From the IMG/VR virus record IMGVR_UViG_3300025108_004499: a stretch of 64,000 nucleotides of DNA; one strand, given 5' to 3'. The position numbers and the translations under genes are program-made. Position 1 is the stretch's first letter, and each line of letters begins with the position of its first letter. Below the pieces are notes generated by a model. The model was not told the DNA's origin and ran no database searches. It was given only the letters and a program-made list of their open reading frames with translations. This DNA comes from a virus. Positions 4,968 through 60,341 of the stretch are shown in pieces.

Positions 4968-6289
4968 TAGATCTTCTCACCAGCTTGAAATCCACGAAAC
5001 GTTTTGAATCGTGGAAATCTCAAACTGTAAGTGTCACTGTCTTGTGATTGTGTTCGAGCATCTGCTCTAATTTCAATTAACTGACCAATGAGACTAGAAC
5101 GTTCAGTCCAGTACTCATCACGTTGAGCGTCAGTGAAACCGCTCCCACAGTTAAGGCGATAATTGTATCCATCGTCTTCTCCTTCTACTATTACGGCACC
5201 TAGTCTTCCTTCGTTACGTCCTGTGCCTTCCTCAACGTCAACGACGGTTAGTGTAATTTCAATAAAAGGTTTTGCTTTGAGCCAAGCATGTGTACGTTTA
5301 CATTCGTAGGGTGCATCAATGTCTTTTATCATAACCCCTTCATAGCCACCGTCTACAGCCGTCTTATTAAGCTCTACAAAGCGTCTATTGCCTTCATCAG
5401 TACTCAAGTCTACCTCTTCCCATTCACACGCTGTAACGTGCTCTAAGAGGTCTTGATTCTCCAGTACCCAATACTTGACTAAGTTACTACGATATGTTTG
5501 TGGTTTATCCCAACCACCTTCTAAAAAGTCTTTCAATGGAATAAAGTCAAACAAGTGTAGTACACTATCAGTTGCGGCTTTACCATCTTTTCTATGTACT
5601 TGCTTCATAAGGTCTTGGAAGTCTTTGCTCATTACTTCGCCGTCAAGTACACAATCATATGGACTAGGCTTTGCGGCAAGTACTGCTTCAATCTCTGCGA
5701 TGATGTGCGGAAAGTTATGAAACTGTTTTCCATTACGTGAGAACAATTCTACCTTACCACCTTTGCATACTGCTAGTACACGAACACCGTCTAGTTTAAC
5801 TTCAATTTGTTTTTTGCCTACCATCTTCTTTTCATGGTTAGCTGAGTCGTGTGCAAGTGAACAAGTAAATGTAGGAATTGCATACTGTGGAAACTTTTTA
5901 GCAATCTTGTTTACAGTCTTTTCACTACAACCACAACGTAGGTCTTTGATTAAGATACGTCTATAAAATCCATTCCACTGTTCAGTAGTAGCAACACCCA
6001 TTGCTAATATGATAGCATCACGTGCCGCATGACCTGTAAGTTCTCTATTAATAAGTTGGTTAGCAAGGACTTTAAATGTATCCCAATCTAATCCTTGTCC
6101 TGTAAGCACATCTGTACGTTCAGGTACTTGCTTCACACCAAATGTAACAAGTGGATCAAGAGCCATACGTACACCTTCAAAGAACTCATCTAGTCCTTCT
6201 TCCATTGCTTCTAGTATTACTTGTTCCTTAGCAAGACGTGAATTATCTGCTTCTAACTTTTCTATAATAGCCTGTGGTTGCGTTCTCAT
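4967..6289 (-). CDS. lig: ATP-dependent DNA ligase
   Basis: Motif I KLDGVR, SRNGK, LDGE, EGVMIK, WLKAK, C-terminal OB fold with SLRFPRF. Confidence 0.95.
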   Translation of the reverse strand: MRTQPQAIIEKLEADNSRLAKEQVILEAMEEGLDEFFEGVRMALDPLVTFGVKQVPERTDVLTGQGLDWDTFKVLANQLINRELTGHAARDAIILAMGVATTEQWNGFYRRILIKDLRCGCSEKTVNKIAKKFPQYAIPTFTCSLAHDSANHEKKMVGKKQIEVKLDGVRVLAVCKGGKVELFSRNGKQFHNFPHIIAEIEAVLAAKPSPYDCVLDGEVMSKDFQDLMKQVHRKDGKAATDSVLHLFDFIPLKDFLEGGWDKPQTYRSNLVKYWVLENQDLLEHVTACEWEEVDLSTDEGNRRFVELNKTAVDGGYEGVMIKDIDAPYECKRTHAWLKAKPFIEITLTVVDVEEGTGRNEGRLGAVIVEGEDDGYNYRLNCGSGFTDAQRDEYWTERSSLIGQLIEIRADARTQSQDSDTYSLRFPRFKTFRGFQAGEKI

Positions 6290-6366
6290 GTGTGCCTCAT
6301 TAATTAATTATGTTACTATAATAGCATCAGTATATACAAATGTCAACCTCTTTTGGACAATAAAAT

Positions 6367-6440
6367 TGGCATAGGTGGAGGGAATCGAACCCCCATTAAC
6401 TGGTTTGGAATCAGTTGTGTTACCATTACACCACACCCAT
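6367..6440 (-). tRNA. tRNA-Trp(CCA)
   Basis: Cloverleaf; acceptor ATGGGTG/CACCTAT, discriminator G, encoded CCA, loop TTCCAAA (one A-C mismatch in anticodon stem). Confidence 0.88.
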
Positions 6441-6477
6441 AAAAAAAGCCCCTAATAAAATTAATTACTAGGGGCTT
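6441..6477 (-). terminator. Intrinsic terminator directly upstream of tRNA-Trp
   Basis: 13-bp stem AAGCCCCTAGTAA/TTATTAGGGGCTT followed by a T-tract that abuts tRNA position 1. Confidence 0.85.
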
Positions 6478-6506
6478 ACTGAAATAACTTTTTTTACAAA
6501 GTCATG

Positions 6507-6566
6507 TCAAGACATACCCCCGGATGGTGGCCAACAAGTAATATATGTTGTATTAGTCTGTGACAT
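6507..6566 (-). CDS. Candidate leader peptide MSQTNTTYITCWPPSGGMS
   Basis: AAGGA RBS at 6579-6575; upstream TTGACA-N17-TATATT promoter; single Trp codon followed by Pro-Pro; precedes terminator and tRNA-Trp. Confidence 0.6.
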   Translation of the reverse strand: MSQTNTTYITCWPPSGGMS

Positions 6567-6609
6567 GTTAGTATTCCTTATTTCTTATTATGTATTTAAT
6601 ATACACTCT

Positions 6610-6783
6610 TTATTTTAGTTTGTCAACATCTTTTTTGTCTGCTCTACCTTTTTTTCCGCAGTGTGGACAATGAAATGTTGTTCGTTCAATGCAATACTTG
6701 TCTTCCATAGTAGCGAATGTAAACCAGCCCTTACATTGAGTGCAGGTTAAATGCCATATGATTTCTTTTACCGCATTGAACAT
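6610..6783 (-). CDS. Small zinc-ribbon protein (57 aa)
   Basis: MFNAVKEIIWHLTCTQC...FHCPHCGKK; two CxxC pairs; TAAATA box upstream. Confidence 0.7.
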   Translation of the reverse strand: MFNAVKEIIWHLTCTQCKGWFTFATMEDKYCIERTTFHCPHCGKKGRADKKDVDKLK

Positions 6784-6810
6784 TGTAAAAGTATTTAGCT
6801 TACCTATCTT

Positions 6811-6963
6811 TTAGATTTTTTGTAATCTTGGATCTGAACTTAGTATGTTCTTTTCAGCTCTTGGTCTAGACAAACGATTCTCAGCCATTTTGCGTATTAT
6901 TGCTTTATGTGCTAGTTCTGTTTTTCTTTTCTTACGAGCTAGTTCGAAGTCTTTGTGATTCAT
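6811..6963 (-). CDS. Small basic protein (50 aa) downstream of glutamine riboswitch
   Basis: MNHKDFELARKKRKTELAHKAIIRKMAENRLSRPRAEKNILSSDPRLQKI with GGGAG RBS. Confidence 0.65.
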   Translation of the reverse strand: MNHKDFELARKKRKTELAHKAIIRKMAENRLSRPRAEKNILSSDPRLQKI

Positions 6964-6987
6964 AACACTCTCCCTTTTACAGTTAAG

Positions 6988-7033
6988 TGCGTTCCTTCGC
7001 TTAGTGCTACTTCCGGGCTTATTGCCTGAACGT
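6988..7033 (-). promoter_or_regulatory. glnA-motif (glutamine-I) riboswitch
   Basis: ACGTTCA-GGC(AATAA)GCC-CGGAAGTA-GC(ACTAA)GC-GAAGGAACGCA matches the glnA RNA three-way junction/E-loop consensus. Confidence 0.8.
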
Positions 7034-7037
7034 AATA

Positions 7038-7415
7038 TTATTTAGCTCTAGATTGGTAGTCTTTTATTGCTGATTTGATTGCATCTTCGGCAAGTACACT
7101 GCAATGTATCTTAACTGGCGGTAGTGCAAGTTCTTCTACAATGTCCATATTCTTAACTGCTGATGCTTCGTCTAGTGTCATTCCTTTTACCATTTCAGTT
7201 ACTAAACTTGAACTTGCTATTGCACTACCGCAACCGTAAGTTTTGAATTTAGCATCTACAATAACGTTATCTTCTACTTCTATCTGTAGACGCATAACAT
7301 CACCGCAGGCAGGTGCTCCTACCATTCCTGTTCCGATGTTATCTTTACTAGGATCAAACTTTCCAACGTTGCGGGGGTTTTCGTAATGGTCCATTACTTT
7401 TTCTGAGTAGGCCAT
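7038..7415 (-). CDS. iscU: Fe-S cluster scaffold IscU
   Basis: YSEKVMDHYENPRNVG, GAPACGD, GCGSAIASSS, LPPVKIHCS. Confidence 0.95.
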   Translation of the reverse strand: MAYSEKVMDHYENPRNVGKFDPSKDNIGTGMVGAPACGDVMRLQIEVEDNVIVDAKFKTYGCGSAIASSSLVTEMVKGMTLDEASAVKNMDIVEELALPPVKIHCSVLAEDAIKSAIKDYQSRAK

Positions 7416-7460
7416 ATAATAGTCTCTGTAGTTATACTACATTTATTTATGACCATTAGT

Positions 7461-7535
7461 TGGTAGTCCCAAGGGGAATCGAACCCCTCTTTTCAGGATG
7501 AAAACCTGATGTCCTAACCGATAGACGATGGGACC
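7461..7535 (-). tRNA. tRNA-Glu(TTC)
   Basis: Cloverleaf, stem TCAGG/CCTGA, loop TTTTCAT, CCA end. Confidence 0.92.
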
Positions 7536-7545
7536 ATATCTTACT

Positions 7546-7620
7546 TGGCTGGAACGATAGGACTCGAACCTATAATCACTTGTACCAAAAACAAGGGCAT
7601 TACCATTATGCTACGTTCCA
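7546..7620 (-). tRNA. tRNA-Gln(TTG)
   Basis: U1-A72 acceptor, stem CTTGT/ACAAG, loop TTTTGGT, CCA end. Confidence 0.9.
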
Positions 7621-7633
7621 TTACCAGTTAAAC

Positions 7634-7709
7634 TGGTGCCGGCACACGGACTCGAACCGCGGACCTACTGATTACAAATCAGTTGCTCTACCAACTGAGC
7701 TATGCCGGC
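7634..7709 (-). tRNA. tRNA-Thr(TGT)
   Basis: GCCGGCA acceptor, loop TTTGTAA, CCA end. Confidence 0.95.
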
Positions 7710-7711
7710 AT

Positions 7712-7801
7712 TGGCGGAAGATGTAGGATTCGAACCCACGGTAGAGTCACCCCTACGACGGTTTAGTAAACCGCTCCTTTAAACCACTCAGGCAATCTTC
7801 C
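7712..7801 (-). tRNA. tRNA-Ser with ACT anticodon
   Basis: Long variable arm, G73, GGAAGAT/ATCTTCC acceptor, stem GCGGT/ACCGT, loop TTACTAA. Confidence 0.85.
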
Positions 7802-7811
7802 AGTTTGTTAT

Positions 7812-8222
7812 TTATTTTGTAAACTTTAGTCTTTGTTGTTTACCGTTATACATAAAAGTTACAACCGAATGACTATAAACTTCACGCTGTGATTCTTCAT
7901 ATCTAGTTTCAATTTGACACTCTCGACGTGTACCACTTGGTTTCTTTTGTGCTTTATCTGCACCAATAACTCCTCCAAGTATTGCACCTGCCGCGGCACC
8001 TTTATCATTACCACCTAGTACTTTACCTAGTACACCGCCAATAATCATTCCGCCCAAGGCACCTTCTCCTGCATTAGATCCTTGAACAGTTACATCTTTA
8101 CACACTTCAACTCTGTAAGGTGTTTGCTCAATAACTATTTTATATTGATCTGTTACAGTTTCAGCTATTGCTGATGTAGACATCAAAGTAAAAATTCCTG
8201 CTGTAATAAATTTATTCATCAT
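7812..8222 (-). CDS. Secreted glycine-zipper 2TM protein
   Basis: Signal peptide; GALGGMIIGGVLG...GAAAGAILGGVIG. Confidence 0.8.
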   Translation of the reverse strand: MMNKFITAGIFTLMSTSAIAETVTDQYKIVIEQTPYRVEVCKDVTVQGSNAGEGALGGMIIGGVLGKVLGGNDKGAAAGAILGGVIGADKAQKKPSGTRRECQIETRYEESQREVYSHSVVTFMYNGKQQRLKFTK

Positions 8223-8369
8223 TGTCTCCTTTTAATTGTTTAATTCTATCTTTCATCCAACCAATTGCGGTATGTATATGTCCTGTGTCATGTTCTTGTA
8301 ACTGACTCTGTGCATATTTAACTTCATCTTCTAAGTACTTGACTCGGATAAGGTTTCCGCTAAAGTCTT

Positions 8370-14182: not shown

Positions 14183-16231
14183 TTACTTCGAAGTAGCAAT
14201 AAACACACCGGACCAGTCTTTAGGAAGGTCTTGTGTTTTCTGGAATTCACAACGTTCAATCCACATGTCATAGTATGCACTCATTTTGCCATCAAAGTGG
14301 CTGTGTAGTGTATTACATAATTCTATTGCTTTGTCAAAGTCTTGTGCTAGATATGCTTTGTGCATTTCTTCATGCTTACGTTGTGCTGTACGCCAAGCAG
14401 GGCGTCTATTATCTAACACTGTCCATATTGTAATACCTACAGTTTTACCTTTAACTGCTAAATCGTCGATTTTTAAATAGAAAAAGTCGGTTTTAGTACG
14501 TTGGTATGTCGCATCTCCAACAAGTAATACACATCCGTATTCTTTACACTTGCTTTCAATACGAGCGGCTGTACTGACTGAGTCTCCAAGGACGTCATAA
14601 CTGTGTCGGGCTGTTGAACCCATCTCGCCAAGATAGCCAAGCCCAGTATTAATACCAGCCCCCATACCCACTGGGGGTCTTCCTTCTTTGGTAATCTTAT
14701 CATTAAATATCTCCACTGCTTTTAACATATCCAATCCGCATTGTACTGCTGTCTTTGGATGTTGCGGATCTTCAATTGGTGCATTGTGTACGTGCATACT
14801 TGCATCGCCAATGTACTTAATAACCATACCGTCTGCGTCAAGTATAGGTTGTGTGATGGCATCCATGTAACCATTCATAATTTTTGTTAGACCTTTTACA
14901 TCATCACCAAATGATTCACCTAATGGTGTAAAGCCTCTTAGGTCTGAGAAACAAATTGAAACTTCTTTCTTCATACCATCTTTTATAAGTGCAGGATTCT
15001 CTTGTAGCATACGTACTACTGTTGGTGATGCATATCCTGCAAACTGTTTTTTGATTGCTTGTTTCTGTGCATACTCACTTACAAATCTATTAAAGATTGC
15101 ATGTAAGCCTACTACAAATACAGTTACCATAGGCATTGTACCATCTAACAAGTACAAATAATTAACCCATGCATAATGTACACTATAGGTGAGTCCTCCC
15201 ACAAACGCAACTAATATTCCTCCAGCCAACCAGTAAGGGGCAAACCTTCCAACGCACACCAGTGCTATGCCTAGTAGTCCGGTTGTGATAAGCTCTGCTA
15301 AGAATGCCCAATAGGGACGCTCAATTTGATCGCCATCTATCACAGTTTGAAGTGTTACTGCGGCCGGTATATAGTTGTGTTGTGGTCCAGTCGGACTAGC
15401 GATTAAACCACCTATGCCTTCTGCGGTTACTCCTATAATAACAGTCTTCCCTTCAAACGATCTATAATCATCTGAGGCCGCACTAATAGTTTCAAATTGT
15501 TTATTCCATCTCAACCATATCTGTGCATTAGGATCTGTTTTTATAATTGGGTAACCAGGAACTCGTACTGCTTCTATTCCACCACCAGCTTCTTTAACTT
15601 GGTAACTAGGGTTTCCTGTTGCTACACGAATAACTTCAATTGCTAAAGCGGGATACGTGTCTTCGCCGACACGCATTAGGAGTGGTACTCGTCTTACAAC
15701 ACCGTCGATTTCTGGGTTAGTGTTCAACACGCCCACACCGTCAGCATTATCTCCTAGCAATTGGATTGGTCCTAACATTCCTGGCCATTCAAACATATAT
15801 GGCACAGGATCACCAATTTTCGCAATGCCTCGAGGGACCGCATTACGATTGGCTTGGGTACTTCCTACTTGTGCTATTACAACACCGTTACCCGCAAGTG
15901 CTTCAGCTAATTGAATATCACCACCTAGTCTATCTGTCTCAGACATGATAACAGGAATTACGATGATACCAGCACCTGCTTCGCGAAGTTTCCAGATTAT
16001 ATCTGCAATTATATCACGCTTCCAGGGCCATTGCCCGTACTTTTCAATGGCGGCTTCGTCAATGGTCACGATGCCGACGTCCTGGGATAATGTTGCCTTA
16101 TCAGTTTGTTGAAGTAAGTCGAATTGCTTAAGGCGAGCAGTCTGCACTAATTGACCATCTGTGTAATGCAGACCTATCATAATGAACGCTGTGACAAACG
16201 CCACAGTCCAATGTGTAATATACTTCGTCAT
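14183..16231 (-). CDS. CHASE2-domain class III adenylate cyclase
   Basis: IDE..I.KYGQWPW.R and DGVVRRVPL (CHASE2), 3 TMs, FSDLRGFT, KYIGDA, YDVLGDSVSTAARIES. Confidence 0.93.
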   Translation of the reverse strand: MTKYITHWTVAFVTAFIMIGLHYTDGQLVQTARLKQFDLLQQTDKATLSQDVGIVTIDEAAIEKYGQWPWKRDIIADIIWKLREAGAGIIVIPVIMSETDRLGGDIQLAEALAGNGVVIAQVGSTQANRNAVPRGIAKIGDPVPYMFEWPGMLGPIQLLGDNADGVGVLNTNPEIDGVVRRVPLLMRVGEDTYPALAIEVIRVATGNPSYQVKEAGGGIEAVRVPGYPIIKTDPNAQIWLRWNKQFETISAASDDYRSFEGKTVIIGVTAEGIGGLIASPTGPQHNYIPAAVTLQTVIDGDQIERPYWAFLAELITTGLLGIALVCVGRFAPYWLAGGILVAFVGGLTYSVHYAWVNYLYLLDGTMPMVTVFVVGLHAIFNRFVSEYAQKQAIKKQFAGYASPTVVRMLQENPALIKDGMKKEVSICFSDLRGFTPLGESFGDDVKGLTKIMNGYMDAITQPILDADGMVIKYIGDASMHVHNAPIEDPQHPKTAVQCGLDMLKAVEIFNDKITKEGRPPVGMGAGINTGLGYLGEMGSTARHSYDVLGDSVSTAARIESKCKEYGCVLLVGDATYQRTKTDFFYLKIDDLAVKGKTVGITIWTVLDNRRPAWRTAQRKHEEMHKAYLAQDFDKAIELCNTLHSHFDGKMSAYYDMWIERCEFQKTQDLPKDWSGVFIATSK

Positions 16232-16243
16232 ACTGTATTTATG

Positions 16244-16459
16244 TTACTTTGTGAGGTGTGAAGATTTTATTATTTCACGCTGTTCTAGTTGTTGTTTGAA
16301 CATTGCTCGAACTTCAGGTGCGTTGTCTGTTGCTTCTAAGAACTGTAATATACCGCTCCAACTGTTGCCCATAAACAGTATCCAACCGTCCTTGTATAAT
16401 ACGCTACGGCTGTTTAAATTTTTGAAGTAGAAGTTTTTATAGTGATATTCGTTCATCAC
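16244..16459 (-). CDS. Small hypothetical protein within the curli-cyclase operon
   Basis: 71-aa ORF behind a TAAATA box. Confidence 0.55.
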   Translation of the reverse strand: MMNEYHYKNFYFKNLNSRSVLYKDGWILFMGNSWSGILQFLEATDNAPEVRAMFKQQLEQREIIKSSHLTK

Positions 16460-16465
16460 TAATAT

Positions 16466-17896
16466 TTAGTTTTGGGTAATAGTAGTTGTGCCACAACCAT
16501 TTGCGTTTACACAATTTTGATTTATTGAATATACTTGTCCTGTTGAACTATCTTGTGTAAGATCAAGTCCTGAGTCATAACCTGACATTGAGATACTAGC
16601 ATTGTGATTGCCACTTCCGTCTTGTGTTATGTCAACTGTTTGATCGTTACCTACTGCTATTTCTGTATAGTGAGATCCTGATCCCCATTGGTTAACATCT
16701 ATATCGTTGTCATCACCTTGTACAGAAATAAATGCTTTTTTATCACTGTCATTTAACTGGCTGGTATTAACATTATTAATATCTCCATCTATATCTACTG
16801 CAATATAGTGTCCGTTGTTACCTACAGTATTATTATGATTTTGTGTAATACTTAATATATTAGAGTCACCGTCAATATCAAACTCAACTCTATTATCATC
16901 TGCACCTGTTGTAACTCCTTGGTCAACTGTTGTTGTATTAGAGTTGCCAGTAATCCCAAACAATATAACATTGTTTTCACCTTTTTGTTTGAGTGTAGTG
17001 TTGTTATTATCTCCAACTATCTCTGCTTTTGCTAAACTGCCGTTACCTGCAATAAGATTGTCATCGCCGTCTTGTACGATAGTAAGTGTATTGCTGTCTC
17101 CTATTTGTTCAATGTATACACCGTTGCCACTGTGTGTTACACCTCTGGCTGTTGAGATCTGATTAGTTTGTGCATTGCTTATACTTGAAGTATATGTTGT
17201 CGTTGTTGCAACTAATCCTGCTTCTGTCATTGCACGAGTTAGGAAGTCTACCATGTTATTACTATATTGATGTGTTGATAGTAATTGTCCATAACCAAAT
17301 GAAACTGTAATTGATCCACCATTACTACCATACTCCCAATTATACCAAGTGTTCCAACTACTGCCTGTACTATTTTTTGCCATTGCTGTACCGCCACTTG
17401 CTGTAAACAGTTTGTCTGGTCCTGGCAATGTGTTTTCACTTGATGTGCTTGAAGCATAATCGCCTACCGCATATGAACCCCAACAGGTATTACAACTACC
17501 TGCTATATACATACTTCCTACACTTAATTTACTTTCAACCAACGATTCAATGCTACCTATTCTATTGGTTGCTCCGTTGGGTGCAAGAATGACTACGTGT
17601 CCTCCGTTGCCTATAAAACTTTCATAGTTTGTTTTACACGTACTGCCACAGTTTGAAGTTCCTGCTATATCAATTACAAGTTCTTTGCCTGATAGATCAT
17701 TTGAACTTACTGTGCCACTTGTACTTCCTGTCACAGTAAAACCTAAATCTTCAAGTTCACTTTTTAAATGATTGTAGTGTGAACTTGTGTTTGTTCCACC
17801 TGTGCTGTAATATATTAAGGCATCATTTGCCCAACTAGTTGTTGGACTGAATAATAGTAATACTATTAGTGCCTTCGCTACCCAATCTATAGTCAT
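16466..17896 (-). CDS. Secreted protein: N-terminal globular domain plus C-terminal curlin-like repeats
   Basis: Signal peptide ending SWA; about 23-aa repeats with Q-x-G-x-x-N (IEQIGDSNTLTIVQDGDDN, LKQKGENN, ITQDGSGNH). Confidence 0.75.
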   Translation of the reverse strand: MTIDWVAKALIVLLLFSPTTSWANDALIYYSTGGTNTSSHYNHLKSELEDLGFTVTGSTSGTVSSNDLSGKELVIDIAGTSNCGSTCKTNYESFIGNGGHVVILAPNGATNRIGSIESLVESKLSVGSMYIAGSCNTCWGSYAVGDYASSTSSENTLPGPDKLFTASGGTAMAKNSTGSSWNTWYNWEYGSNGGSITVSFGYGQLLSTHQYSNNMVDFLTRAMTEAGLVATTTTYTSSISNAQTNQISTARGVTHSGNGVYIEQIGDSNTLTIVQDGDDNLIAGNGSLAKAEIVGDNNNTTLKQKGENNVILFGITGNSNTTTVDQGVTTGADDNRVEFDIDGDSNILSITQNHNNTVGNNGHYIAVDIDGDINNVNTSQLNDSDKKAFISVQGDDNDIDVNQWGSGSHYTEIAVGNDQTVDITQDGSGNHNASISMSGYDSGLDLTQDSSTGQVYSINQNCVNANGCGTTTITQN

Positions 17897-60264: not shown

Positions 60265-60341
60265 CTGCCCTTAGCTCAGCTGGATAGAGCGTTGGTTTGC
60301 GGAACCAGAGGCCAGGGGTTCGAATCCCTTAGGGCAGGCCA
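60265..60341 (+). tRNA. tRNA-Arg(GCG)
   Basis: CTGCCCT/AGGGCAG acceptor, D loop with A20, stem TTGGT/ACCAG, loop TTGCGGA, CCA end. Confidence 0.88.

Follow-up and report, generated by a model that had tools for sequence, protein, structure and literature searches.

Phage tRNA genes are usually seen as constitutive helpers in codon usage or as spares against cleavage. The locus studied here raises the question of why one of them, a tRNA-Trp gene, should lie directly behind a short open reading frame (ORF) and an intrinsic terminator. It lies on the minus strand of a 64,000-nt stretch of DNA of an uncultured marine phage (IMG/VR record IMGVR_UViG_3300025108_004499), which we call the window. 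Judging from sequence comparison and folding, we consider the unit to be probably a ribosome-mediated leader-peptide transcription attenuator of the trp-operon type, gating the phage's own tRNA-Trp with negative feedback on tRNA supply.

The leader unit and its relatives

The module is ~260 nt in size, has its own promoter and terminator, and occurs in a single copy in the window. Every element that the original prediction had read from the minus strand was present, namely the promoter, AAGGA, a 19-codon ORF with one Trp codon, and a 13-bp terminator abutting tRNA-Trp(CCA). The features, in the order of transcription, are:

6598-6626, minus strand: sigma-70-type promoter (-35 TTGACA at 6626-6621, 17-nt spacer, -10 TATATT at 6603-6598)
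6575-6579, minus strand: Shine-Dalgarno sequence AAGGA, 8 nt 5' of the AUG
6507-6566, minus strand: leader ORF with 19 sense codons and a UGA stop, product MSQTNTTYITCWPPSGGMS (ATG at 6566, TGA at 6509-6507)
6556-6566, minus strand: 5' strand of helix A, comprising the start codon and codons 2-4, which pairs with 6513-6504
6531-6533, minus strand: UGG for Trp at codon 12, which would act as the sensor, 12 nt 5' of the first G of the G-run
6522-6530, minus strand: C-rich Pro-Pro-Ser codons CCACCAUCC, partner of the G-run in minimum-energy folds of the free RNA
6521-6517, minus strand: G-run GGGGG, within the leader ORF
6504-6513, minus strand: 3' strand of helix A, GUCUUGACAU, spanning the final sense codon, the stop codon and the next 3 nt
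6470-6521, minus strand: predicted antiterminator hairpin, from the G-run (6521-6517) to the CCCC (6474-6471) of the terminator 5' arm
6441-6477, minus strand: intrinsic terminator with a 13-bp stem, a 6-nt loop (6477-6446) and U7 (6447-6441) ending at tRNA nucleotide 1
6367-6440, minus strand: tRNA-Trp(CCA), the putatively regulated gene (ARAGORN; Rfam RF00005, 62.2 bits)
6318-6346, minus strand: next promoter, TTGACA-N17-TATTAT, at the end of the tRNA unit, driving the ATP-dependent DNA ligase gene at 6289-4967

The leader promoter matches the consensus at 11 of 12 positions and overlaps the final codons of an upstream ORF for a 57-aa zinc-ribbon protein. There is one G-U among the 13 pairs of the terminator stem (-19.7 kcal/mol, z -4.3), and no promoter-like site was found between the terminator and tRNA-Trp. 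The tRNA itself, as read from the sequence, has A1-U72 and G73, with CCA encoded. The predicted antiterminator has an 8-bp tip helix in which 6505-6498 pairs with 6491-6484. The 5' strand of the antiterminator contains the stop codon (6509-6507) and shares nucleotides with the 3' strand of helix A.

The module was found in at least 247 elements in marine viral and metagenome contigs, with 104 distinct leaders among the matches listed. About half of the matches to the 15-mer query alone are due to chance; the recurrence of the module is far beyond chance. Of the 104 distinct leaders, 96 have a promoter-like site at the same place and 93 have AAGGA; 79 begin with ATG and 25 with GTG, and all relatives listed retain the leader ORF, at 15-24 codons. 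An insert of ~95 nt present in relatives matched no Rfam family.

The in-frame UGG is present in every one of the 104 distinct leaders, as the single Trp codon in 87 and at position 12 in 85. With tRNAs in the relatives called by ARAGORN (linear mode, padded sequences), tRNA-Trp was found downstream in 108 of 108 leader/cluster combinations, so that the leader ORF with in-frame TGG upstream of tRNA-Trp, whose conservation the original prediction had made its first check, is indeed a conserved arrangement. It is the first tRNA in 107 of these combinations, and the tRNAs behind it vary widely among relatives. Other tRNA genes, plus tRNA-Trp in a few relatives, stand directly behind a promoter, without the leader; tRNA-Arg in relatives is behind a bare promoter, and in the window tRNA-Arg(GCG) and a Ser-Thr-Gln-Glu cluster come directly after coding genes.

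Spacing within the leader is also restricted. Despite indels, the distance from AUG to UGG takes only the values 27, 30, 33 or 36 nt in the 104 distinct leaders. The distance from UGG to the G-run is 12-21 nt in all of them and never below 12, and takes eight values, some of which are not multiples of three, so that the G-run falls in each of the three reading frames or beyond an early stop codon. UGG is thus conserved as a codon and the G-run as RNA. The stop codon is 11 nt past GGGG in 96 of the 104 and within or beside the hairpin in the others. These distances agree with the earlier suggestion that the G-run sits near the edge of a ribosome stalled at UGG and is covered by one that reaches the stop; the ribosome footprint size used for this geometry is general knowledge.

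The leader pattern had no match in bacterial and archaeal species genomes, and blastn of the locus and the leader against 50,697 phage records matched only the tRNA, or noise. The neighboring ligase shares no more than 35% identity with any protein of a cultured phage.

Alternative folds and a proposed switch

Folding yielded two mutually exclusive states, each in 50 of 50 leaders, in keeping with the alternative structures that had been suspected. In the free full-length RNA, the minimum-energy fold was the terminator state in all 50, with helix A in 49, and the Pro codons (CCNCC) paired with the G-run in addition to helix A; this state was more stable than the antiterminator state by 10.4 kcal/mol on average. 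When the RNA was masked up to UGG+12 to represent the stalled ribosome and the 3' arm of the terminator was left out, all 50 leaders had the G-run-to-CCCC hairpin as their minimum-energy fold, at -14 to -26 kcal/mol. The original prediction had taken the pairing of the G5 run with CCCC for the antiterminator and had called it short. That pairing exists, as one part of a long imperfect hairpin of ~20 bp (6521-6470) with a predicted energy in the window of -19.0 kcal/mol (z -3.7), and the worry about shortness does not hold.

We weighed these folds against shuffled and displaced sequences. Shuffling the antiterminator 3' strand gave a median z of -3.2 over 27 distinct 3' strands. For the window itself the outcome was modest, 11 of 200 shuffles folding equally well (z -2.05). 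Taken together, helix A and the terminator had 91.9% of alignment cells paired (no more than 61% after sliding) and three pairs with compensatory changes, which 1 of 500 shuffles reached. The terminator on its own had 97.6% of cells paired and compensatory changes in two pairs, and helix A had one compensatory pair (G-C 39, G-U 7, A-U 2). In the lower antiterminator stem, whose 5' strand hardly varies, covariation accordingly did not exceed that of shuffles. Because indels in the loop throw the 3' strand out of register, RNAalifold on the MAFFT alignment recovered only the outer and tip helices of the antiterminator. At equilibrium, in the window, the terminator together with the hairpin tip outdoes the full antiterminator (-28.8 kcal/mol); the switch must therefore act kinetically, like 2:3 versus 3:4 in trp.

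A ribosome stalled at UGG would already have passed the 5' strand of helix A and would leave it uncovered, which we counted against the attenuator reading.

At the level of sequence, then, the anatomy, the conservation, the alternative folds and the geometry are established, and the locus combines the features expected of an attenuator: a leader ORF with a ribosome-binding site, a cognate codon, an intrinsic terminator with no other promoter, a mutually exclusive antiterminator, an upstream blocking pairing, and a stall/stop geometry. The mechanism that we propose would begin with transcription from the promoter at 6626-6598 and translation of the 19-codon leader during RNA synthesis. With no ribosome on the leader, helix A would join the two ends of the ORF and the Pro codons would pair with the G-run. 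Since these pairings would lock the G-run segment, the terminator would form and RNA polymerase would halt in the U-tract, a single base short of the tRNA. An unhindered ribosome would reach the UGA inside the antiterminator 5' strand and hide the G-run segment, so that the terminator would form again. A ribosome waiting for charged tRNA-Trp at UGG would stop with its front edge just 5' of the G-run, probably hiding the CCACCAUCC codons (region 1) while UGG is in its A site. The G-run and the sequence following it would then fold with the terminator 5' arm into the ~20-bp antiterminator hairpin, polymerase would read through, tRNA-Trp would be made, and RNase P would trim off the leader.

Slow decoding of UGG would in this way cause the phage to top up tRNA-Trp, for example when the host's tRNA-Trp has run low, has been broken down or has been cut by a defense nuclease, and in relatives the same control would extend to the tRNAs behind tRNA-Trp. 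From this arrangement we infer that the leader is translated in vivo, that ribosomes stall at UGG and that read-through is regulated. The comparative tests support the earlier proposal that tRNA-Trp is made only when Trp decoding stalls, a function that we likewise infer. Classical leaders have two to seven regulatory codons, and the single regulatory Trp codon here was counted against the attenuator reading on the score of sensitivity.

Leader codons and other readings of the locus

The original prediction had raised co-variation of the leader codon with tRNA identity, and among the leader/cluster combinations AUA, Cys and Gln codons do track the further tRNAs of the operon: at least two AUA codons against a tRNA whose anticodon is UAU or CAU (CAU being Met or lysidine-modified Ile), 18/0 vs 4/86; a Cys codon against tRNA-Cys, 67/1 vs 29/11; and a Gln codon against tRNA-Gln, 8/0 vs 51/49. 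In phylogenetically separate pairs, cognate codons were more numerous in the tRNA-bearing member in 45 cases and fewer in 11, with 34 ties (P = 5e-6 in a pooled sign test, which used all branches of a tree from ~230 columns, with comparisons across tRNA kinds not fully independent). On well-supported branches only, every codon/tRNA pair was concordant and none was significant singly (P 0.06-0.25). Pro codons, Pro-Pro included, did not co-vary with tRNA-Pro. The window's leader has a Cys codon without a tRNA-Cys, which we also counted against the attenuator reading.

On these comparisons we tentatively suggest, with somewhat less than even confidence, that the leader may be an evolvable "test strip" of the whole tRNA operon, in which codons near the fixed UGG (AUA-AUA, UGU/UGC, UAU, CAA) swap in step with tRNA gain and loss. 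Each phage might then gauge, codon by codon, how far the infected cell decodes what the phage's own tRNAs supply, and turn the operon on only upon failure.

The alternative folds would suit any stall signal equally well, and a ribosome-dependent attenuator answering to some other cue must be considered. The cue might be nascent-peptide arrest at an ...I-x-C-W-P-P sequence, alone or dependent on EF-P or Pro-tRNA, or general translation capacity (host shut-off, ribosome-targeting stress), with UGG merely a slow codon. Almost all leaders have a Pro in the three codons after W, and TTYITCWPP resembles FXXYXIWPP(P), a known artificial arrest peptide motif (PMC11669330). The W-P-P singled out by the original prediction is present in the window, but it is not universal: position +1 after W is Pro in 79 of the 104 distinct leaders and Cys in the other 25, position +2 is Pro in 81, and leaders with WPL, WPS, WCP, WCT, WCS or WCL retain the rest of the module. 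Moreover, a ribosome whose A site held the second Pro codon would hide the window's G-run, so that a Pro-Pro stall would favor termination rather than read-through; pairing with the G-run also accounts for the CCN codons. Another cue would leave unexplained both the constant tRNA-Trp downstream and the AUA, Cys and Gln codons that track the operon's tRNAs. We regard this reading as unlikely.

The unit is also complete enough, with promoter, ribosome-binding site, ORF and strong terminator, to be an independent small gene or small RNA, in which case the tRNA would be made by unregulated leak or by read-through from upstream, and the folds would be incidental. Its terminated RNA of ~150 nt is highly structured (-44.7 kcal/mol, z -5.5), and attenuator RNAs and leader peptides of Sinorhizobium can act in trans (PMC6614838, PMC7298713). 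However, protein conservation is lacking in the C-terminal third of the peptide, which appears in three frames, with early stops and frameshifted tails, over nearly invariant nucleotides, and no Pfam or Rfam family fits the leader. Nor would a free-standing gene account for a G-run held at least 12 nt from UGG, a stop codon held inside the antiterminator, leader codons that track the downstream tRNAs, or, among the matches listed, a module never found without tRNA-Trp (with its one copy in the window). We judge this reading to be distinctly unlikely.

A case for a binding factor might be made from the block GGGGUAUGUCUUGACRUGACUUU, which is more conserved than pairing needs (invariant at G73-G75, T77, G80-T81, T83-T84, A86-C87, G90-A91 and T93-T95). 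A phage or host protein or RNA could bind there and pick the antiterminator or the terminator, the ORF being secondary. Overlapping constraints from coding, stop codon, helix A and antiterminator can explain this invariance, though, whereas a factor would leave unexplained the in-frame conservation of ribosome-binding site, AUG and UGG. No candidate factor was found, T-box and other RNA families gave no match, and such a switch seems to us improbable.

An internal promoter, with the invariant TTGAC inside the leader as a -35 driving the tRNA, was rejected as very improbable: TTGACG-N16-TATTTT can be read in many relatives, but the spacing to TATTTT ranges over 16-19 nt with the loop length of the tip helix, the window has TATTTC at 18 nt, not called as a promoter, leaders L082, L083, L098, L154, L162 and L174 lack any -10-like hexamer, and a transcript from there would still carry the whole terminator.

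Known attenuators and the possible meaning for phage tRNA supply

The proposed attenuator at tRNA-Trp is closest in design to E. coli trpL (RF00513) and to hisL, pheL, leuL, thrL and ilvL, which like the module have a translated leader with a regulatory codon followed by an intrinsic terminator. In both, the antiterminator uses the terminator 5' arm and an upstream pairing locks the antiterminator segment when there is no stall; stalling leads to read-through and free or no translation to termination, as we propose for the module. The differences are several. The module would regulate a tRNA rather than an amino-acid biosynthesis operon, closing its loop on decoding capacity; it is phage-encoded; and it has one Trp codon, not two or more in tandem. 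Its sensing codon lies between two locking elements rather than inside region 1, and its stop codon is inside the antiterminator. No sequence or covariance-model similarity to the trpL type was found (RF00513 Trp_leader, E up to 5, positions 6000-8300 scanned).

The pheM leader of pheST, with its run of Phe codons, exerts ribosome-mediated attenuation on an aminoacyl-tRNA synthetase gene, and is thus likewise a leader-peptide attenuator that controls a translation component through reading of the cognate codon; its product, however, is a protein enzyme, non-phage, and not a tRNA gene. T-box riboswitches share with the module a terminator/antiterminator switch reporting the state of one tRNA, but they bind the uncharged tRNA through Stem I and the T-box bulge, with no ribosome, whereas the module has no Stem I, specifier loop or Rfam match and has a conserved translated ORF. 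The T-box model RF00230 gave no match at E up to 5, and the leader of ~150 nt is taken up by the ORF.

TnaC and FXXYXIWPP(P) resemble the module in having a short ORF with a critical Trp followed by Pro, where ribosome position controls downstream transcription, and in TnaC the critical Trp is also at position 12. TnaC, though, stalls at its stop codon with free Trp and blocks Rho, whereas the module's terminator is intrinsic and its leader lacks the TnaC spacing W12-D16-P24. From arrest peptides in general the module differs in its variable W-P-P and in the termination that a Pro-Pro stall in the window would favor.

In the literature searched we found no published case of an attenuator of tRNA genes, and a pelagimyophage paper (PMC7029224) has nothing on this element. 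Phage tRNAs have been discussed as spare parts against tRNA-cleaving defenses such as AriB of PARIS (PMC12409363). If the attenuator reading is right, phages would gauge decoding speed and regulate their tRNA supply on demand, and classical attenuation would extend from amino-acid genes to the decoding machinery. If the "test strip" reading also holds, feedback attenuators on tRNA genes may counter host tRNA depletion or a tRNA-cleaving defense. With more than 240 copies, the module is widespread in marine viral contigs, and it would offer a natural handle on when phage tRNAs matter in infection.

The Trp leader and its relatives

Re-reading of the minus strand bore out the predicted coordinates of the promoter, ribosome-binding site, ORF, terminator and tRNA-Trp gene. 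The leader occurs once within the 64-kb window.

Features of the Trp leader and its surroundings, read from the sequence where no other basis is given
6626-6621 and 6603-6598, minus: promoter, TTGACA and TATATT with a 17-nt spacer, 11 of 12 consensus matches
6579-6575, minus: ribosome-binding site AAGGA
6566 (ATG) to 6509-6507 (TGA), minus: leader ORF encoding MSQTNTTYITCWPPSGGMS
6566-6556 with 6513-6504, minus: helix A, the start of the leader ORF paired with its end (fold of the window leader)
6533-6531, minus: UGG, codon 12 of the leader ORF
6521-6517, minus: GGGGG run
6521-6470, minus: antiterminator hairpin, ~20 pairs (fold, -19.0 kcal/mol, z -3.7)
6477-6446, minus: terminator, 13-bp stem-loop (-19.7 kcal/mol, z -4.3)
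6441, minus: last base of the seven-U run of the terminator
6440-6367, minus: tRNA-Trp(CCA) (tRNA gene call)
6346-6318, minus: next promoter, driving the ATP-dependent DNA ligase gene at 6289-4967 (promoter scan)

The promoter scan of the window found none between terminator and tRNA-Trp; considering sigma-70-type signals, tRNA-Trp would thus be made only by read-through of the terminator.

Relatives were gathered in two ways, through the neighboring ligase gene and with a pattern confined to the leader's 3' half, which introduces no bias toward particular codons or downstream genes. The family comprises at least 247 elements, with at least 104 distinct leaders and at least 108 distinct leader/tRNA-cluster combinations. 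Every one of the 104 distinct leaders collected has an ORF of 15-24 codons (starting with ATG in 79 and GTG in 25) and an in-frame Trp codon, so that the conserved TGG-bearing ORF sought upstream of tRNA-Trp is indeed present; AAGGA precedes the ORF in 93, and 96 have an upstream promoter-like site. When the search was rerun without requiring UGG, none of 51 leaders lacked a Trp codon. The window leader has a single regulatory Trp codon.

The distance from AUG to UGG is exclusively 27, 30, 33 or 36 nt, placing W at codon 10-13. From UGG to the G-run there are eight distances (12, 13, 14, 15, 16, 18, 19 and 21 nt), so that across leaders the G-run block GGGGUAUGUCUUGAC falls in each of the three reading frames; some leaders stop ahead of it (…CWPPG-stop, …CWPPS-stop) and others continue after it into a frameshifted tail (…GPGVCFDMTL-stop). 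The fixed frame on one side of UGG and the free frame on the other indicate that UGG is kept as a codon and the G-run block as RNA, a pattern that would not be expected of a small protein gene.

The Trp leader was absent from the bacterial and archaeal species genomes scanned, and searches of cultured-phage sequences found no close relative of the window; relatives are abundant in marine viral and metagenome contigs, which reach ~350 kb. The window itself (38% G+C, six tRNAs) carries genes for ribonucleotide reductase, a CHASE2 cyclase, curlin-repeat proteins and an aminotransferase. The CHASE2 cyclase (682 aa) joins a CHASE2 domain to an adenylate/guanylate cyclase domain and has a 476-aa curlin-repeat protein as its neighbor (14183-17896, minus), cargo not usual in a phage. 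A glutamine riboswitch aptamer (RF01739; 6986-7034, minus; 42.5 bits vs a gathering score of 35) lies only ~400 nt from the Trp leader, immediately 5' of a 50-aa basic ORF (6811-6963, minus) that matched no Pfam family; the same aptamer occurs in the related locus L005 (1847-1895, 41.3 bits). Between this riboswitch and the tRNA cluster sits a 125-aa ORF (7038-7415, minus), by eye a putative IscU/NifU-type iron-sulfur scaffold.

Alternative folds and ribosome position

Folding yielded the two alternative structures anticipated, each in all 50 distinct leaders folded. For the free full-length RNA the minimum-energy fold was the terminator state, with helix A in 49 (typically UCAAGAC with GUCUUGA) and the C-rich Pro codons paired with the G-run; it lay on average 10.4 kcal/mol below the best fold containing the G-run:CCCC pairing. 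We then imitated a ribosome holding UGG in the A site by hiding the RNA up to 12 nt downstream of the first UGG base, and RNA yet unmade by omitting the terminator 3' arm. The minimum-energy fold became one long imperfect hairpin that joins the G-run to the CCCC in the terminator 5' arm (-14 to -25.6 kcal/mol). The original prediction had considered this pairing short; in the window it is a hairpin of ~20 pairs (6521-6470, -19.0 kcal/mol).

The antiterminator 3' strand exists in 27 distinct versions, some pairing elsewhere along the invariant 5' strand, and its complementarity far exceeds that of shuffled versions (median z -3.2; window z -2.05). Of the cells in helix A and the terminator together, 91.9% were paired vs at most 61% when slid, and compensatory changes were seen in three pairs, a number that 1 of 500 shuffles reached. 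For the lower antiterminator stem the corresponding paired fractions were 89.1% and at most 64%, with covariation no higher than in shuffles, as the 5' strand is nearly constant. With the complete RNA at equilibrium, the terminator plus the hairpin tip is favored (-28.8 kcal/mol in the window), so the antiterminator must rely on kinetics, as does the weaker 2:3 pairing of the trp leader.

In all leaders the G-run begins at least 12 nt from the first base of UGG, and exactly 12 nt in 42, the window included; footprints and toeprints place the front edge of a ribosome holding a codon in its A site at about this distance from the first base of that codon. Spacing is longer, typically 19 nt, in the class with a Cys codon after W. 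The stop codon falls within the antiterminator 5' strand, 11 nt past GGGG, in 96 of 104 leaders, and just ahead of the G-run or within the hairpin in the remainder; a ribosome reaching a stop within the antiterminator must therefore melt or cover it. This 12-nt spacing and the stop inside the hairpin agree with the proposal that the G-run lies at the edge of a ribosome stalled at Trp12 and is covered by one at the stop. On this model, a ribosome waiting at UGG would leave the antiterminator just free and cover the C-rich partner of the G-run.

tRNA genes behind the leader

All 108 complete combinations have tRNA-Trp(CCA) behind the terminator, as the first tRNA in 107 (the exception, L281, has Cys then Trp), followed by a diverse set: Cys, Pro(UGG), Ser, Ile(UAU), CAU, Gln, Tyr, Arg, Gly, Glu, Lys and Ala. 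Other tRNA genes of these phages, among them tRNA-Arg (in the window and relatives) and the Ser-Thr-Gln-Glu cluster, lack a leader, making it a specific add-on of the Trp-led operon; in a few relatives tRNA-Trp itself has no leader and sits immediately 3' of a coding gene or of a bare promoter.

Several tRNA genes and their flanks have features of their own. The Ser-Thr-Gln-Glu cluster lies directly 3' of a coding gene, and ARAGORN calls its first member tRNA-Ser with anticodon ACU (A34; window 7712-7801, minus). The window tRNA-Arg has anticodon GCG (60265-60341, plus); in the related locus L037 (~700-837) a promoter and then a ~90-nt structured leader without obvious ORF precede tRNA-Arg(GCG), unlike the bare promoters found before it elsewhere, and L037 also has a tRNA with anticodon UUA, called a suppressor by ARAGORN. 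A ~95-nt structured insert, with outer stem ACUACACUA…UAGUGUAGU and no Rfam family match, separates the terminator U-tract from tRNA-Trp in L009 (~2520-2616), L019, L027, L028, L033, L073, L204, L210, L214 and L217; L034 and L215 have different inserts there. In some relatives the tRNA-Trp(CCA) gene has a long variable arm and a length of 85-88 nt, unusual for tRNA-Trp (L005 2268-2355, L017 822-909, L091 and others; Rfam tRNA score 42.5 bits). The tRNAs assigned to Ile(UAU) by anticodon call only are 91-94 nt, with a long extra arm and A73.

Leader codons were compared with tRNAs over the 108 combinations, for Cys, Tyr and Pro first and then for every tRNA kind. The tables gave 18/0 against 4/86 for two or more AUA codons and a tRNA with anticodon UAU or CAU, 67/1 against 29/11 for Cys codon and tRNA-Cys, and 8/0 against 51/49 for Gln codons and tRNA-Gln; Pro codons and tRNA-Pro showed no association. 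Since relatedness inflates such tables, pairs were compared on a tree built from non-ORF parts only (promoter plus UTR, G-run to terminator, and tRNA-Trp). Independent pairs on well-supported branches were always concordant and almost never opposite, each kind singly falling short of significance (p 0.06-0.25) because pairs were too few. Under a uniform count of cognate codons on all branches of this short tree, unsupported ones included and with recombination likely, the tRNA-bearing member was the richer in cognate codons in 45 pairs and the poorer in 11, with 34 ties (pooled sign test p = 5e-6, with comparisons across tRNA kinds partly dependent); more/fewer counts were 11/2 for Cys, 10/1 for AUA, 5/0 for Gln and 6/4 for Pro. 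Co-variation of leader codons with tRNA identity, which the original prediction had raised, thus appears real on moderate evidence, holding for AUA, Cys and Gln and failing for Pro. In the window, UGG is the sole leader codon with a matching tRNA behind the terminator.

The CAU tRNAs, called Met (L114, L129 and L152, for example), accompany leader AUA-AUA as tRNA-Ile(UAU) does, which suggests that they may be lysidine-type tRNA-Ile2; having G1-C72 and A73, they are not initiators.

Proposed mechanism and meaning

The element is probably a ribosome-dependent attenuator, and we favor, with less assurance, decoding of UGG by Trp-tRNA-Trp as the step sensed. An arrest peptide or general translation sensor could work the same RNA switch, which we consider unlikely: W-P-P is not universal among leaders, a Pro-Pro stall in the window would cover the G-run and so favor termination, and the tRNA linkage would go unexplained. 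A little less likely again is an independent small gene or small RNA whose terminator leaks, against which stand the conserved geometry and the conservation of the 3' block independently of frame. A factor bound to the invariant block is improbable, as it leaves the translated ORF unexplained, and an internal promoter at TTGAC scarcely credible, its spacing not being conserved and the terminator still lying in the transcript.

As an attenuator, the leader would match the classical 1:2/2:3/3:4 scheme one to one, with CCACCAUCC and the 5' strand of helix A serving as region 1, the stretch from the G-run up to and including UGAC as region 2, the terminator 5' arm plus a few upstream bases as region 3, and the terminator 3' arm as region 4. 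Absent or unhindered translation would lead to termination; a pause at UGG would allow read-through and production of tRNA-Trp, which would in turn relieve the pause. The A/U-rich tip helix with the UUAUUU that follows it may pause RNA polymerase and so synchronize it with the ribosome, and helix A may be covered by another ribosome waiting in line at the start codon.

The element would work like the trp, his and phe leader-peptide attenuators, whose every defining feature testable in silico it has, although the Rfam Trp_leader and T-box models do not match it. It differs from them in its target, a tRNA gene, and in its phage setting, which are what is new here; a full-text literature search, with many subscription papers outside it, found no described attenuator control of tRNA genes. 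With a tRNA gene as its target, such an attenuator would form a feedback loop on decoding capacity.
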